Notes under the pieces: model-generated
Database searches by the model: none
What the model saw: only the letters and a program-made list of their open reading frames with translations
Told to the model about the DNA's origin: nothing
Translations under genes and position numbers: made by a program
Assembly (NCBI GenBank): GCA_036436775.1
Contig: GCA_036436775.1_3676.1
Length of the DNA: 64,000 nt
DNA from: a phage
Direction: 5' to 3' (one strand)
Shown here: piece by piece, positions 14,326 through 46,606 of the stretch
How positions within the stretch are numbered: position 1 is the first letter of the stretch
Layout of the letters: the number at the start of each line of letters is the position of its first letter

Positions 14326-14607
14326 ATGAAAAAGATTAACAGTGGTGAAGTCGAGTTTAAACTTGTCGGGAAAGGCACTTACTGGGAAGTTCGTCAAAAG
14401 GTATATTTGTTCGGTCTTATTCCCTATTGGTCTAAATTCTACTGGGGAGCTAACGAGTTGGGAAGATACGCCACCAAATCAATGGCACTTATTGGTATAG
14501 CAGAGTACATTGCAGCTAGAGATAGGGTTGGAGACACTTATTACTATACTGCGGACGATATTCGTAACAGTGTTTACGTCCCACAACCACCTGATGGAGA
14601 CCGTTGA
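14326..14607 (+). CDS. Hypothetical protein
   Basis: ORF; ATG 14326 with GGAGGGAG RBS. Confidence 0.55.
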   Translation: MKKINSGEVEFKLVGKGTYWEVRQKVYLFGLIPYWSKFYWGANELGRYATKSMALIGIAEYIAARDRVGDTYYYTADDIRNSVYVPQPPDGDR

Positions 14608-14831
14608 TGAAAGTTAGAGTTTTAGATTCAAGCTTCTATATTGGTCAGGAGCCTTTAGTAGGGAAAGTGTTTACTGCTGTCCCTAACGAAGATTACCCTG
14701 ACCTTTTAAAAATAAAAGGGGCAGATCTTATTGCCGCTGGTGCATCTCAGGAATGCTTTGACAGTCAGTGGACCTACAACTTTGCCCTAGGGGAGGATGT
14801 GGAGGTAGTGGAGGACGATCATGAAAGTTAA
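14607..14831 (+). CDS. Small acidic protein (paralog family A)
   Basis: MKVRVLD...GADLIAAGA...VEVVED; paralogous to 14821, 10944, 16697, 16965. Confidence 0.6.
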   Translation: MKVRVLDSSFYIGQEPLVGKVFTAVPNEDYPDLLKIKGADLIAAGASQECFDSQWTYNFALGEDVEVVEDDHES

Positions 14832-15075
14832 AATTCTTGACTCTAACGTCTACTTGGGACAATCCTTCCTGAAGGGAAAGGTCGTACCTGCTGTATACTT
14901 CGAAGAGTTGCCGTGGGATGATCCTGTGCGGCAAAATCACAGCTATGTAGGCCACAATGTGGTTTTCATCTTGGGATCAGACCTAATAGCGGCTGGTGCC
15001 CCGGAATATTATTTCGGAGAGGACTCGTATTATGCCTTTGGGGTAGGGTCAGATGCAGATATTTTAGAGCTGTGA
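14821..15075 (+). CDS. Small acidic protein (paralog family A)
   Basis: MKVKILD...GSDLIAAGA...; paralog of adjacent gene. Confidence 0.6.
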   Translation: MKVKILDSNVYLGQSFLKGKVVPAVYFEELPWDDPVRQNHSYVGHNVVFILGSDLIAAGAPEYYFGEDSYYAFGVGSDADILEL

Positions 15076-15485
15076 TGGGGACTGTTGTGAAAAATAAACT
15101 GTTCAAAGTTACAATGAAAATTCGCGGAGCTTGGAGCGTAAAGCAAGGGCGTATCCCGGAATTTGAGAAAGACTTCTACGTAGTCTCCACCTCTGAAGAG
15201 GCTGCATGCTGGCAGGCTGGCTATGCCTATGCAAGAACTTGGTACGAAGGATACCAGACTGGGGGCTATGACGGAGAAATTATCAGCAAGGGTGTAGAAG
15301 AAATTAATGTGTTGACAAGTGAAAAAGTTTTTGTTATAGTGCATCCAGATTCCAGAGTGAAGCATTATTGGAATGCCAGAACAAAAACTTGGACACCGTT
15401 TGCAGATTCTGCTACACCACTTTTAAACCAAAAAGCTCTTGACTCTGCCCCGAGCTATGGGGTTGTTGAAGAAAAGCTAAACTGA
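15075..15485 (+). CDS. Hypothetical protein (paralog family B)
   Basis: Shares HP.S...YW...TWTP...TPLL segment with ORF 17297-17692. Confidence 0.6.
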   Translation: MGTVVKNKLFKVTMKIRGAWSVKQGRIPEFEKDFYVVSTSEEAACWQAGYAYARTWYEGYQTGGYDGEIISKGVEEINVLTSEKVFVIVHPDSRVKHYWNARTKTWTPFADSATPLLNQKALDSAPSYGVVEEKLN

Positions 15486-15799: not shown

Positions 15800-15828
15800 T
15801 TGACACAACGCTTCAGCTATAGTATTAT
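15800..15828 (+). promoter_or_regulatory. Sigma70-like promoter TTGACA-N17-TATTAT upstream of HPF homolog
   Basis: Hexamers read directly. Confidence 0.55.
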
Positions 15829-15877
15829 TGTTTTCAAAGAGAGAGCTATATTCCCTCTTCTTTAAAAGGAACACGTT

Positions 15878-16195
15878 ATGCAAATTGAGATCACTGGCAA
15901 CGTAGAAATCACCGAAGGTATGGTGTCTTTCATTTCCCACAAAATGTCAAAACTGGAGCGTCTACATCCTTCTGTAAATCATGCACGTGTAAGTGTAAAA
16001 GTTGAAAATGATCACCAGGAAGTTATGGCGTTCATTTTTGACACTTCTGGAAAAGAAGTTATTGCCAAAGCTAAAGGCAGTGATGCTTACGAGGCAACTG
16101 ACCGTATGGTAGATGTTGCAGCACGTCAGCTGGCTAAATGCGGTGGAAAGAAAGGTAAAGGGAAAGGAAAAGTAAAGATTGACTTTGGAGAATGA
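15878..16195 (+). CDS. hpf: Ribosome hibernation promoting factor / RaiA (YfiA-HPF family) homolog with Lys/Gly-rich tail
   Basis: 105-aa ORF; MQIEITGNVEITE...KLE...VKVE...ARQL pattern matches bacterial HPF from memory. Confidence 0.7.
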   Translation: MQIEITGNVEITEGMVSFISHKMSKLERLHPSVNHARVSVKVENDHQEVMAFIFDTSGKEVIAKAKGSDAYEATDRMVDVAARQLAKCGGKKGKGKGKVKIDFGE

Positions 16196-16204
16196 GGTGC
16201 TACA

Positions 16205-16306
16205 ATGGGCGTGATTAAGAAATTAGTCCCAAGTGTAGAGATTGCATGCTTTGAAATTATGTTTGCAATCGCAGTTGTAGTTAATGTGTTAGGTTACGGC
16301 TATTAA
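16205..16306 (+). CDS. Small hydrophobic peptide (33 aa)
   Basis: ATG with GAGGTG RBS right after HPF stop; hydrophobic C-terminus; not in ORF track. Confidence 0.4.
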   Translation: MGVIKKLVPSVEIACFEIMFAIAVVVNVLGYGY

Positions 16307-16332: not shown

Positions 16333-16602
16333 ATGAAAATTAAATTATTCAAAACCGAGCTGGCAGACAAAAACTGTGGACTGGTTGAAGGCATGATCGT
16401 TGAAGCACAACCAGTAGACTACATGAAGGTAGTTCGTGATGCCTTGGGTGAAGGTTTTGATCTGATGGAACCAGCTCTGCGAGAAGATGTTATCGAGATG
16501 GCTAAAAAGCACACACCTGAAGGCATGGTGGTGTTTGTTGCACCGGGTAACGGAGAAGAGTTGATTGTAACCCCTGATGTGTATGAGATTGTAGAAGAAT
16601 AA
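16333..16602 (+). CDS. Small acidic protein
   Basis: 89-aa ORF with GAGGAG RBS; ends ...EIVEE. Confidence 0.6.
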   Translation: MKIKLFKTELADKNCGLVEGMIVEAQPVDYMKVVRDALGEGFDLMEPALREDVIEMAKKHTPEGMVVFVAPGNGEELIVTPDVYEIVEE

Positions 16603-16964: not shown

Positions 16965-17297
16965 ATGAAAGTACGCTTTATTGGTGAAACAATTCCTGTG
17001 CATCTCCGGTCGCCTGAAGATTCTGCAGATCTTGCATCTCAGAAGGCGAGAGGTTATGATAAGAAAGTAATCTCAACCGATGTAGAACTTGAGGCCACTA
17101 GTCTACCTGACCCCGCTGCATTCTTTAATCATTATGGATACTATTTCAGCAATCTGATGAATATCGGTGAGCTTGTGTTTATTAATGGTGGAGAAATTGT
17201 TAGCAAGCTTGGCGGCGATCCGGATGTCTTTCATGAAACCTGTCCTTTTGCATTTGTTGTTGGTTCAGATGTGGAAGTTATTGAGGAGGTGCGGTAA
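16965..17297 (+). CDS. Small acidic protein (paralog family A)
   Basis: ATG 16965 with GGGTGA RBS; ends ...GSDVEVIEEVR. Confidence 0.55.
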   Translation: MKVRFIGETIPVHLRSPEDSADLASQKARGYDKKVISTDVELEATSLPDPAAFFNHYGYYFSNLMNIGELVFINGGEIVSKLGGDPDVFHETCPFAFVVGSDVEVIEEVR

Positions 17298-17692
17298 TGA
17301 TAAGCCTATACCGTGTCGAGTATAGCTCAGATACTGTATACAACGTAAGAAGCAAAGATCGCAGCGACAGAGTGCAAGAAATGTATGTTCTTGCCGACAG
17401 TCCTTTATCTGCAGCGTTCAAGGCAGGGGCTCTTGCATCTCGTTGGAAATTTGAAGGCGGATCTTTCTATGAAGAAACCCTTGAAGATTCTGTTGTTATT
17501 TCTTCTGTAGGGGTTTCAGATGATTACGAAGGGAAAAAGTTCGTAATGCGGCACCCACACAGCAACATTGCGTACTACTGGGATGTTCTGAACAACGAGT
17601 GGACCCCAGATCTTCAGAAGGCTACTGTGCTAACACCGTTTTTGGCAGATAAGTTCCCACCAGAAGGTAATTTATCCGCACTGTTTCAGTAA
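17297..17692 (+). CDS. Hypothetical protein (paralog family B)
   Basis: Paralog of 15075-15485 (RHPHSNIAYYW...EWTPDL...VLTPFL). Confidence 0.6.
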   Translation: MISLYRVEYSSDTVYNVRSKDRSDRVQEMYVLADSPLSAAFKAGALASRWKFEGGSFYEETLEDSVVISSVGVSDDYEGKKFVMRHPHSNIAYYWDVLNNEWTPDLQKATVLTPFLADKFPPEGNLSALFQ

Positions 17693-21895: not shown

Positions 21896-23189
21896 CTTCG
21901 GTTTGAAGGGGTATGGAGATACACCTGAGTGAACAGGGTGAACAACCGAACCATTGGCTATGGCATTAGCATGGCGAAGCGGACGGGTGACGAAAGAGGG
22001 GCCGGAGGACACCAGTCACTGCCATATGATATATGGGTGATAACCTGAAGAGTCTGAATAAGTGTTTAAGTACCAGTCAGAGGAAAAGGTGAATGGTAGC
22101 CGAAGGGGGAGGGGGGGTTACCTGCTTCTGTAAACATGCATCTGAAATACTACTTTAGATAACCTGAACCTGCCTTTCTGACAAATATTCCCTATTAAAC
22201 TTGAATTATTTATAGAAAATACCACAACACCACTTAAGTCTTTGATTTTACACACAAATCCTACAGATATTCACCTTCCATATTTAACATACTTGTAACA
22301 TATCTATACCTAACCTGTCCGATCAACTCCCCCACCCACATCCTCCATATTTTCCCTGTCTGTACCACCCCTGCCCCGCCGGGAGTCCCGTCATATCTGG
22401 CTTTCCAGCAAATATCACACCCACAAATATCATTGCCTGAAGAGGGTTTCATCCCATAATACATGCCTTACCTGAAGAGCGCTTCATATACCCAGTAAAT
22501 TTTTTAATTGACCCCCCTCCCAGCCGCCGGAGGGGTTGGCTTTTCCCACACAGACCTGAAGAGTCAGCCAGAAATATCTGAAGAGGTCCAGTTATGCCAC
22601 GATTTTGTGCTTGTCCTACAGGAGTGCTTCCCTGTCAGGAGCCGGTAGCGACTGGAGTGCTGCCAGGCGGACGAAATGGGAATCATTCTCATTCTTATAA
22701 CAATTCTCAAATATCGAGGCAGTGAGGCAAATTAATAGGTGAGGCCGTTCACACAGTGGCACAACATTTGCAACCTATCTTTTATGGGTGAATGAGAATA
22801 CCTATCATTGTGAGAATAGTTATCATTACGGGCAATTTAACATAATACCCATTATGCGCACCACTGGCGATACATACAGGGATTGATAACATGAGTTACT
22901 GTTTACACACATAACAATTATATTTCTTACTATTTGTGTGGGATATAGTTAGCAGCCGATAGATTAGATATTGACCTGCAGGCTTCCAACCGTCCAGACG
23001 TCTAAACGCCCACACAACAAGGATTATACATACAACACTGAATGTAAACAGGGCCGCAAAAATGCTACCATACAAGCTTGTAAATTTTTCATGCAGCACT
23101 TGACAAAGAGGAGAAAAACTTGTCTGACACAATATGACTTAATTGCCACAACATGACACTTTTGCACACCTGATTGTTTGCATGTCTAA

Positions 23190-23554
23190 TAGTTTACATA
23201 GATAACTGTTCACATACTTATCATTTACATGATTGACTGTTTACACAAAGATGATAAGCCATGCCATTCGTTTGCATGACAATAATTAACTGGTTTGCAA
23301 TTAACAAGTTAATAATCTTTCACTGGCTATGCCAGGTGACCTTTGGTCACACCTTCGGGTGTTTCTATGACATAATATAAAAGCAGGGCAACTATTAGCA
23401 GATATATAGTTGCCTTGCTTGTTATGTCATGATTAACTAAATACAAGGCAACTATGATCTGGTTAATAGTTTGCAGACAAACTATCACGGGGGTGATGGT
23501 TACTGCTTTTATATTATGTCGCGACTCCGTCGCGCCATGCCATTCGTTTGCATA
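23190..23554. repeat. Iteron/palindrome cluster (candidate origin or regulatory region)
   Basis: TGTTTACA-type iterons 23193-23250; 20-bp direct repeat GCCATGCCATTCGTTTGCAT at 23258 and 23535; 18-bp perfect inverted repeat at 23369-23386 / 23504-23521; GGCAACTAT palindromes between. Confidence 0.6.
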
Positions 23555-24172
23555 GTTGCCTTATTGTTACATATAAAATAATTGTATTGTTAATTATTTC
23601 TTATCTTTCTCTTAGTCATCTAATGATTCCAGTCAGTATAGTAATGTACAGTAAACATTAGACGACTAAAGATTTATATGCTTATAATAACTTACAGTGA
23701 CAATTTCGGACTGTTTACGAAAAATGTTGACACCTGAGCTGATTTATGTTATGCAGTTTACACGAATAATTATTTTATGCAGGTATTGACTATTCCGTTA
23801 TTCTATGGTCGGAATAAATACTTAGCAGACTATAGAATGGTGACGCTACGTGAATTCTGGAATTTAGTGGCTATAGTTATACCCGATTTTTCACGTAGAA
23901 CACGCTTTTGTGGTTATGTAAGTGTATGACTTATAAAGATTTTTAGTTGTTGACAAGACACTGAAGATATGCATCAGGTTAAATTTTGTGCAATAGCGGC
24001 ATTACGTGCAATTTTGGAAGGAAAAACGTGTAAAAATGGCCCTGCTACCACACAATGAAAGATTATGCAATAGCTATTTTACATGTATATTTGTACAGTG
24101 TGTGGGATTGATGGCTAGTCAATTATTCCACTTGCAGGCTGGGCCGTTTGTGGTAGGAGAAATACAGACAAA

Positions 24173-24207
24173 AAGAAAGGGGCCTTTTAAAGCCCCTGAT
24201 AGTTTAG
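24173..24207 (-). terminator. Rho-independent terminator ending the - strand small-gene island
   Basis: On - strand AGGGGC-TTTAAAA-GGCCCCT followed by TTCTTTTTGTCTG. Confidence 0.65.
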
Positions 24208-43906: not shown

Positions 43907-44182
43907 CAATAGTTCAGGTAGGTCGTTAAGCTACCCCGCACCATTACGTGCATAGCCATACGTTTTCACGTAGGATCGGACCATCTCATATTCCTATGAT
44001 AAGCAACCACAGGAATCCTCCCATTTCGACCGCACTTGCTGGTCTACTTCCTTTCGGAATGGCCTCTGAGCGTTCGCTCTTTTGAGCGCTTCGTTGCGGA
44101 TTACCTTGCCATAAGGTTTAGGCTTCCCGCAGTTAAAGAGGTTATTCGACATAGATTACTCTATGAAGCCACAATGTTATTT
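43907..44182 (-). ncRNA. Candidate 276-nt group I intron splitting the DNA polymerase at motif C
   Basis: Upstream exon ends in U (codon CAT=His); intervening sequence ends in G before GAT GAG; joining gives YHDEYQLQV; internal GACCA/UGGUC pairing; contains stop codons. Confidence 0.5.
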
Positions 44183-46606
44183 ATGGTAATAAATAATACG
44201 GCGAACACCTTCATCGTACCACCCACGCTTCACCATTTGGTGGTGCATGAGTATCCCAACTAAGTCACACAGCGATGCACCACCATTCTGTTGGTATGCA
44301 TTAAGTAAAGAGTGTTTAGATCGGGTCCAGATAGCATGACCATCAAAAGAGTAGATAAACTTCTTACCAGTTGCTTCCCAGAATTTCTCCAGATCCTCTT
44401 TGCGCCCCTTAAGACCGGGGTTGGCATCCCAAAGCGCATCGATTACCCTTTGTCCCAACTCTGGAGAGATGTCCAGCATATCTGCAACTTTATCTTTTTG
44501 TGCCCCGTACATAACCCCATACGTGATAGGTTTACCGTCGTTACGGGACACCTCTCTACCTGCTACTTTCGTATATGCCTCAGCATTGTTTTGGTGTGCA
44601 TCTCCGTTACTTACAACATCGTAATACAGGCCGTTGTCGAACTCAAAGGCACCCCAAGCCCCGATAAGCTGCTCTAAGTTGGACCCGTCAATACCGATCT
44701 CAAAGTATCCTGGAGGAACACCCCACAAGCTACGCATCTCTTTACCCATAACCACTTTAGGAGATGGTTTAGGCATGTTTGCACAAATACTGTGTTTCTG
44801 TCTGGAAGTGTTTGTCAGCCCAGAACTTTTAGCAGGAAGCTTATGGTCAATCTTCAAACGTGGGTGATTAAGAAGACCAGTATCAACCTTATCCTCCTTG
44901 ATTGGATCAAGGACCGATCTGCGGTTTCGCAATGATAACCACAAGACGATATCTTTAGCCATCTCTCCGTTCAATTTTTCAAGATTCGGACACAGGTGTC
45001 CAAACGTATCTTTCAGTTGCGGAGAAGTAATAAGTGCTCTGGCTTTTCTACGTATTTTCCCGAATACTTCCTTTTTAATCCTTTCAGAGTTAGGAAAGCT
45101 TCGGAACTTGTGCACAGTTGTCTGGAACTTGGCATCAGTTTTGTTCCAGAAGTTGATAATCAGGTCACAATACTCTGACTCTAAAAGCTCGTCCATATAT
45201 GCATATACTCGTGCATCAACATCCGCATCAGGTAGAGCTTTCTTCTTGCTATCTTTAGTTACATCTTTAGTTCTCCACATTGTCGGTAGCCAGCCAGCAC
45301 TGATCAGATACCGCTTAATGTCGTCCTGATTGCTGATTTTCATAGGTATCTTGCAGTCCGGCATTCGCTTCTGCTGTAGATCACTTATTGCCTGATCCAT
45401 CAGCTCTTTAGGCAAAGGGTGGGGTGTGGAAGTGCCCTTAATATAGCCTCTCAAGAAATCAGCCATCTTATCGGGGTCTTTGCAGCCCATCTCTTCACAC
45501 CATTTTATCCCTATCTTGCTGACATCCCCTGTAGAGGTAAATGCTCGCTTAGGCGGGGCTTTGAACTCTAAAGCGCTCATGTCTACAGGATAGCCAAGCT
45601 TATCTTTTAACCATTTCCAACCATTATTAGAGATTGTCCCGTCTTGGTTAAACGGCTTTTCAGGGAACTTGGGCCGCTGAGACATTGACAGCTCTTTTAA
45701 AGGCAGCTGTGGTTCAACACGATCAGCGATTTCTTTCATCCACGCATCGCAACGGTCACGTAAAGCAATAGCTCCATCTATGTCGAAGTATACACCCTGA
45801 CGGGCCTGCAGCTCCATCAGGAAGTGCTGCAGCATGCCTCGACGTAGTGCGTTCTTCCAGGTGATCTTCTTGAACCCTTTCGGCTTCTCTTTGGCTGGAT
45901 CGTACATAAAGTTCTGCATGTCAGATTTGCCGTAGAATACACCTTTTGATTCCGCTACCAGCTCTTTCCAGAGCAGCTCCTGGATGATAACGTCCTCGAA
46001 TACACGATCCACATACTTCCACAACGGAAGATCGCGCCAGTCATCAATTTGAACTTTCTGGTTACCAAGGGCGTAGCCCCATGCCATAAGGCCGTGAGGA
46101 CCAACGGGCTGCATTTTCTTAGTAACCGGGTTGAATACAGAATCCGGACAACCTTTTGGTAAAGGGCGATCAGGCCACAAGATTCGGCTCATCGCCAACG
46201 TATCAAACAGATTAACCTGGTGGTCGTTGATAGTCCCCATACACTTAGGGTCACGGAACATATCAAAATGAATACCGGATAATCTTTCCATCAGCATAAA
46301 GTCATAACTGTAGCAGTTATGGCAGTTCAAAGCTGTTGGTGACCAGTCAGAATTTCCTGTAAGCCAACCTTCCAACTCCGAAAAATCTGCTATGCGAACT
46401 TCAAAATCTTTATAAAGAGTTTTCTTTGCCAGAATAAAGTTCTTAGCCTTCTCTATATCCTCTTCAGAGTAGTGTGTGCGGTCATTTAGAGGAAGGAACA
46501 GCATAAAACGGTTCTTATTCAGCTCTTTAAACAAGCCGCAGTGATAATAAAGATCTAGGTCTTCTAGTAAACCAGAGGCCTCAAGGTCGAAAGACCACAT
46601 ACTCAT
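44183..46606 (-). CDS. Family-A DNA polymerase, N-terminal segment (3'-5' exo domain, palm/fingers, motif B)
   Basis: FDLEASGL exo motif; Pol-A motif B KPITYGVMYGAQ; ORF runs into stop 8 codons past the point where motif C is expected; AAGGAGAACTGTAT RBS. Confidence 0.85.

Follow-up and report, generated by a model that had tools for sequence, protein, structure and literature searches.

The locus described here raises the question of why a phage would carry a gene for a ribosome hibernation factor, and of what the product would do to the ribosomes of its host. It lies in a stretch of phage DNA of 64,000 nucleotides (the window), in which a preliminary description, made from the letters alone, had picked out a 105-residue protein resembling HPF and RaiA along its length, with a Lys/Gly-rich tail and a promoter of its own, and had proposed that it could silence or protect host ribosomes during takeover. 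The coordinates, reading frame and protein sequence given there are accurate. The product reads MQIEITGNVEITEGMVSF...ARQLAKCGGKKGKGKGKVKIDFGE, and its gene has the following parts.

15878..16195, + strand: coding sequence of the phage HPF homologue, with an ATG start and 105 codons plus a stop codon; orthologue of rV5 ORF144 / ABI79209
15866..15870, + strand: Shine-Dalgarno-like AAGGA, 7 nt before the ATG of 15878..16195, as read from the sequence
15878..16141, + strand: S30AE core, residues 1-88 of the phage HPF homologue, defined by profile match and AlphaFold2 model

That the gene is phage-encoded, as had been claimed, is confirmed by the 95-98% identity of this region to the genomes of about 119 rV5-like phages of the genus Vequintavirus. 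At its start the window has the genes of these phages for ribonucleotide reductase and for ClpP-like and PhoH-like proteins, and it belongs to an rV5-like Vequintavirus. Eighteen records labelled Campylobacter jejuni (MG065635-MG065690, 'Campylobacter phage ...') are likewise 95-98% identical across the region, hpf included; their match to E. coli rV5-like sequence suggests a wrong host label or assembly contamination.

The gene itself has been annotated in rV5 since 2006 (GenBank DQ832317), as ORF144, 'sigma 54 modulation factor', with a 'Sigma70-type promoter; P144', and other GenBank records name it hpf, ribosome hibernation factor or RaiA. We reject sigma-54 modulation as its function: this is a legacy name from bacterial hpf, which sits beside rpoN (a layout also seen in this analysis), and that context is missing in the phage. 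In five further records (OR062525, OR062528, OR062530, MT884008 and MT884011) the orthologue carries the name 'ATP-dependent protease La Type I', an annotation error for a 105-residue S30AE protein. Mizuno et al. (2019; PMC6375957) listed rV5 ABI79209 as a phage HPF and weighed its possible roles, and Mathieu et al. (2020; PMC6969025) noted hpf, 'as already described', in five newly isolated rV5 phages; we found no later functional or transcriptomic work on rV5 HPF in the literature. GenBank and the literature thus already contain the gene and its promoter, the assignment to a family and the hypothesis attached to it, and our scan adds no new object. What the present analysis contributes is a residue-level list of departures from enterobacterial HPF, the observation that the tail is conserved in character and not in sequence, and evidence pointing to an old, vertically inherited and strongly constrained gene.

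We used curated profile models and structure prediction to assess family membership. Against Pfam PF02482 (Ribosomal_S30AE) the protein scores 50.2 bits (E = 4.4e-13) where the gathering score is 23.7, with the match spanning residues 3-88 of the protein and positions 1-83 of the 88 in the profile; against the HPF/YfiA family model TIGR00741 it scores 50.0 bits, above the curated cut-off of 40.9. Consistent with this, the best sequence matches in the PDB are chains of E. coli HPF (2rql, 4v8h and 6h4n; E = 1.5e-12 to 3.7e-12, over residues 1-89). The AlphaFold2 model has a mean pLDDT of 81.4, with blocks within residues 1-80 at 86-92, and its predicted elements follow the order expected for the family: beta1 (2-7), alpha1 (13-29), beta2 (33-43), beta3 (46-55), beta4 (60-67) and alpha2 (70-89). 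When this model was compared with the PDB by Foldseek, the first 36 matches were all HPF, RaiA or pY chains, the best being V. cholerae HPF (4hei; TM 0.94, rmsd 0.9 A), and the E. coli HPF within the 100S ribosome (6h4n) matched with TM 0.90 and rmsd 1.1 A. The homology along the length proposed earlier was therefore borne out, and both the HMM search and the structure prediction suggested as checks came out in its favour. Given the curated HMM cut-offs and the predicted fold, we conclude that the protein genuinely belongs to the S30AE / HPF-YfiA family.

Placing the protein within the family is less straightforward. It shares 40% identity with E. coli HPF and 22% with E. coli RaiA, and it scores 57.5 bits against the short-HPF equivalog model (NF007780 / PRK10470; cut-off 125) and 20.3 bits against the RaiA/YfiA equivalog model (NF007654 / PRK10324; cut-off 158). 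By identity and HMM score it is thus nearer to short HPF than to RaiA; on the same scores the RefSeq name 'RaiA' is unsupported, and the status of an enterobacterial-HPF equivalog is likewise not reached. A second domain is absent from the 105-residue protein, which sets it apart from the long HPFs of Gram-positive bacteria, with their C-terminal dimerisation domain and about 180-190 residues. In the PHROG classification it belongs to a family of its own, phrog_12469 (230.7 bits), and matches phrog_8990 weakly (30.1 bits).

A simple reading of this kinship would be that the protein is a classical short HPF, which together with host RMF turns 70S ribosomes into 100S dimers and so shuts down host translation during takeover, as in the silencing part of the earlier proposal. 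The equivalog scores (57.5 bits for short HPF, 20.3 for RaiA) lean that way, as do the top fold matches, which are short HPFs, among them the one from the E. coli 100S ribosome, and the best cellular sequence relatives, which are short HPFs of enterobacterial type. However, factors of the HPF type bind only vacant ribosomes and would be a poor tool against ongoing host translation. RMF, moreover, is scarce in growing E. coli cells, as follows from the regulation of rmf, and this too counts against a dimer-forming role. Half of the basic patch on alpha2 has been lost (K80, K89 and K93), and expression of the rV5 protein had no discernible effect on 100S ribosomes (Mizuno et al., PMC6375957). 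We regard this reading as quite unlikely.

The residues themselves show both what has been kept and what has changed. Conservation was judged across 42 family sequences, and every family position conserved at 90% or more is retained in the phage protein (G7, T12, K22, D69, Y71, D75 and Q84), as are 22 of 33 consensus positions. To these we added the ribosome-contact residues of enterobacterial HPF, taken from a preprint (10.1101/2025.10.07.680626) and mapped via the alignment. The contact positions K25 (E. coli K26), D75, R83, K87 and K91 are kept, while six are replaced in the window protein: Y30 by L, R33 by S, T53 by F, K80 by V, K89 by G and K93 by G. The same positions are replaced in both phage lineages that we compared, the second being a divergent one described below, with Y30 becoming L, R33 S or T, T53 F or R, K80 V or T, K89 G or S, and K93 G or I. 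Viewed by surface, the alpha2 basic patch (80, 83, 87, 89, 91 and 93) together with the stacking residue 30 keeps R83, K87 and K91 and has lost K80, K89, K93 and Y30. There are also new lysines, two on beta4 (K64 and K66) and six in the tail, and the extra lysines at 92, 94, 96, 98 and 100 could compensate for the basic residues lost from alpha2. Together with the score below the HPF equivalog cut-off (57.5 against 125 bits), the contact replacements count against a conservative reading of the protein as an ordinary HPF.

The tail that follows alpha2 is the other departure from HPF, and is as described in the preliminary account.

16142..16192, + strand: basic Lys/Gly-rich tail, residues 89-105, GGKKGKGKGKVKIDFGE, predicted disordered

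Residues 91-105 have pLDDT below 50 in the AlphaFold2 model. The net charge of the tail is +4 over 17 residues, compared with +2 over 7 in E. coli HPF and -3 over 25 in RaiA; the phage tail is shorter than that of RaiA, opposite in charge and unrelated in sequence. In the divergent phage lineage the tail reads YSKSKGIDKRTAKWDY, with a charge of +3; length and charge are similar, and the sequence is different. For the RaiA tail, a role in blocking RMF and the formation of 100S ribosomes is presumed (PMC10502375), and in cryo-EM maps this tail points to the RMF site (preprint 10.1101/2025.10.07.680626).

By analogy with RaiA, the phage protein might be an anti-hibernation competitor, which takes or contests the HPF/RaiA site while its basic tail blocks RMF. 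Ribosomes would then not be converted to 100S, or the 100S ribosomes of a dormant host would be dismantled, leaving ribosomes free for phage mRNAs. This idea was put forward by Mizuno et al. (PMC6375957), who saw no increase in 100S upon expression, and it draws on the presumed role of the RaiA tail (PMC10502375) and its course toward the RMF site (10.1101/2025.10.07.680626). The disordered tail makes the phage protein 10 residues longer than E. coli HPF, and the phage brings no RMF dimerisation partner: a tblastn search with E. coli RMF (E up to 1) gave no RMF homologue in 50,697 phage records. Against it, the tail resembles that of RaiA neither in sequence nor in net charge (+4 versus -3), and the RaiA equivalog model returns 20.3 bits where 158 are needed. 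An occupant of the A and P sites would itself block translation of phage mRNAs, and no decrease in 100S was reported either (PMC6375957). We therefore hold competition with host hibernation to be improbable, if still worth keeping in view.

Cellular hibernation factors are also stripped from ribosomes by stringent salt washes, and this bears on how the published experiment with the phage protein is read. Mizuno et al. expressed rV5 HPF from an arabinose-driven construct in E. coli NM522 and detected the protein in the cell extract, and they found zero rV5 HPF peptides in high-salt-washed 70S and 100S ribosomes and no visible change in 100S formation upon expression (PMC6375957). An unchanged ribosome profile on expression, one half of the outcome that the preliminary description had named as refuting its proposal, is thus what this paper reported. 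The cells were growing exponentially and the salt washes were stringent, and the authors regard the negative as not decisive, attributing it to growth phase, to the washes or to a genuine loss of binding (PMC6375957). The published negative result lowers our confidence that the protein binds ribosomes, without being decisive.

Genuine loss of binding would mean that the fold has been neofunctionalised and no longer engages ribosomes. The absence of an expressed protein from purified ribosomes (PMC6375957) fits this, as do the substitutions of Y30, R33, T53, K80 and K89 in both lineages, the new lysines K64 and K66, and the new tail. With E. coli HPF the protein shares only 40% identity, and among 1.84 billion representatives 48.5 bits is the highest score of any cellular protein. 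However, the family positions conserved at 90% or more are all kept, with K22, D75, R83-Q84 and K87 present, and no data suggest an alternative target. In addition, the experiment was done on exponential cells with stringent salt washes, and its authors call it non-decisive (PMC6375957). A protein that has left the ribosome altogether is, in our judgement, a doubtful proposition.

The promoter of the gene lies directly upstream.

15800..15828, + strand: sigma70-type promoter, equivalent to rV5 P144, with -35 TTGACA (15800-15805), a 17-nt spacer and -10 TATTAT (15823-15828)

The site matches TTGACA/TATAAT at 11 of 12 positions, lies with its -10 hexamer 49 nt from the ATG, and has the features of E. 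coli sigma70 promoters (both hexamers, a spacer within 16-18 nt, an upstream position and co-orientation with the gene). In 100 first-order Markov simulations, sites that agree with the consensus at 11 or more of the 12 positions number 1.3 +/- 1.2; the window has 19 of them, all co-oriented with the local genes (+ strand for roughly the first 24 kb, - strand beyond). This enrichment and the 19/19 co-orientation argue that the class of sites is real. Together with the annotation of P144 in DQ832317, they uphold the earlier claim that the gene has its own TTGACA-N17-TATTAT promoter. The -10 hexamer is TATTAT in the window and TATCAT in rV5, and the position of the TTGACA -35 is shared by rV5 and the divergent lineage (contigs L002-L005); in the latter it is followed by an extended -10, TGcAATTAT. 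We rejected a candidate hairpin in the 5' UTR (15837-15859), since its stability does not exceed that of shuffled sequence (z = 0.25 for the window and -0.89 for rV5) and the divergent lineage lacks it. Another promoter-like site (16179..16206, + strand) reads TTGACT-N16-TACAAT and has an upstream TG; it agrees with the consensus at 10 of 12 positions and overlaps both the stop codon of hpf and the beginning of a 33-codon hydrophobic ORF (16205..16306, rV5 ORF145). Were this site active, it would drive the gene at 16333 and not ORF145.

The gene sits among small genes, and these form paralogous families: the products of 14604..14831 and 14821..15075 are 39% identical (E = 5e-16), and those of 15072..15485 and 17297..17692 are 28% identical (E = 8e-10) and have the motif HP.S...YW......WTP in common. 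Since our literature search found no transcriptome or proteome time course for any rV5-like phage, we infer early expression of hpf from gene layout and promoter type alone.

Elsewhere in the window, the junction of the + and - strand gene blocks is occupied by an ORF-poor stretch of roughly 2.3 kb (about 21900..24200). Its clustered repeats include a perfect 18-nt inverted repeat (23369-23386 / 23503-23520), inverted repeats containing GCAACTAT (23381-23471) and an exact direct repeat of 20 nt (23258 / 23534); Rfam gave no match in it at the gathering threshold. By coordinate offset, a region of rV5 without observable ORFs, labelled 'non-coding' in the rV5 paper (rV5 104013-106618), falls on this stretch; the stretch may serve as an origin, in regulation or as a source of non-coding RNA. 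On the - strand, the 3' end of an 809-residue family-A DNA polymerase ORF (44177..46606) is the site of a group I intron (43957..44192), which matches the full length of Rfam model RF00028 with 64.7 bits (gathering score 50); RefSeq rV5 has the polymerase annotated as two CDS, which fits an intron-split polA. There are no tRNA genes within the window.

We then asked how long phages have held the gene and under what constraint. Relative to rV5, dN/dS is 0.012/0.243, or about 0.05, and 119 phage records have the ORF intact, with identities of 90-100%. The divergent lineage has a homologue of 103 residues (P0004), 64% identical to the window protein, on uncultivated contigs of 44-137 kb, where it occupies the same position between collinear orthologues of the window genes (29-95% identity). 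In that comparison pN is 0.24 and synonymous sites are saturated (pS 0.82). These values point to strong purifying selection on phage hpf.

Such constraint bears on the most deflationary account, that the ORF is decaying or meaningless and its annotation a functionless relic. There are damaged copies: that of phage inoa lacks residues ITGNVE through an in-frame deletion, and in Murica a 1-bp deletion leaves a shortened tail, GGKKGKGKAK. If they do not reflect errors of sequencing, these copies indicate that the gene is dispensable for laboratory propagation. A third variant, found in V18-type copies, has GNNVE as in E. coli HPF and 106 residues. However, the dN/dS value and the 119 intact copies, the orthologue at the same position in the divergent lineage, and the peptides detected when the gene is expressed (PMC6375957) speak against decay; the selection and conservation data effectively refute it, and we give it a negligible probability.

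The same comparisons indicate the age of the gene. As its position and the TTGACA promoter are shared by both lineages, gene and promoter predate the split from the divergent contigs. When the window protein was the tblastn query against 50,697 phage records, only rV5-like records matched, with the exception of AGRM01000002.1, a record labelled 'Salmonella'. This is a misfiled 691-kb contig of Salmonella enterica subsp. houtenae and the match is the bacterium's own hpf, 94.7% identical to the E. coli HPF query. In a HMMER scan of 1.84 billion representatives only 41 proteins reached E up to 1e-3, and the best cellular match, a short HPF of enterobacterial type, scored 48.5 bits at 44% identity; the second-best entry (P0006; 1160 residues, nine matched stretches) is a false positive, a repetitive unrelated protein. 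The GC content of the phage gene is 0.41 (0.32 at third positions), like its phage neighbours, compared with 0.45 and 0.49 for E. coli hpf, and this phage-like base composition argues that the capture is old. The 'relatively recent' horizontal transfer suggested by Mizuno et al. (PMC6375957) is therefore unsupported: the best cellular match is distant, the composition is that of the phage, and the gene predates the split from a lineage at saturated synonymous divergence. Going by these sequence comparisons, the gene would have been captured from a host long ago and inherited vertically since.

What, then, would such a gene do? With moderate confidence, we favour a factor of the HPF type, made from a host-type promoter, that occupies the decoding channel of vacant host ribosomes, which thereby stay inert and protected during infection, with the tail as an additional rRNA anchor. 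Host RNA polymerase would most likely transcribe phage hpf from its own near-consensus sigma70 promoter, among small and presumably early genes. The product would bind vacant 30S or 70S ribosomes in the A/P-site channel, and idle host ribosomes would thereby be held inactive but protected while host mRNA vanishes or the infected cell starves. In cells, HPF shields ribosomes against nucleases (PMC8406268); the benefit to the phage is inferred. The longer, strongly basic and disordered tail would provide an extra anchor on rRNA, and may reach toward the RMF site, as the tail of RaiA is thought to do.

A bolder version of this proposal, which we put forward as a tentative and on the whole unlikely one, is that the protein, instead of simply copying HPF, is a re-tooled early takeover factor, RaiA-like but mechanistically distinct. 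Its basic surface would have been rebuilt, with K64, K66 and the six-lysine tail in place of K80, K89 and K93, and vacant ribosomes would be parked as protected 70S monomers from which RMF, and perhaps ribosome-targeting defence nucleases too, are excluded. If this were true, it would allow rV5-like phages to infect starved or stationary gut E. coli productively. Phage genes that act on ribosomes are of general interest.

Set beside known systems, the closest counterpart of the window gene is rV5 ORF144 (gp144, ABI79209), which is the same gene, with 97% protein identity, the same neighbours and the same promoter P144; gp144 differs from the window protein by only three residues (V33A, H35Y and T56N), and the proteins of DrSchubert, BP9 and Mangalyan are 100% identical to the window protein. 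Among cellular proteins, E. coli short HPF (YhbH, 95 residues; 2rql, 6h4n) shares the fold and aligns from M1 through alpha2, with K22, K25, E43, G58, A63, D69, Y71, D75, R83, Q84 and K87 in common. The phage protein differs from it in its 10 additional residues and Lys/Gly tail, in having DAY for the DMY motif and in its pI (8.7 compared with 6.5), and its gene has a constitutive-looking sigma70 promoter whereas E. coli hpf belongs to the rpoN operon. E. coli RaiA (YfiA, protein Y; 113 residues) has the same fold and, like the phage protein, a C-terminal extension past alpha2, but its 25-residue tail is acidic at the end (-3) where the 17-residue phage tail is basic (+4). Finally, the HPF of Cronobacter phage GAP32 and phrog_8990 are likewise phage-borne and of the same Pfam family, and represent a lineage separate from that of the window protein.
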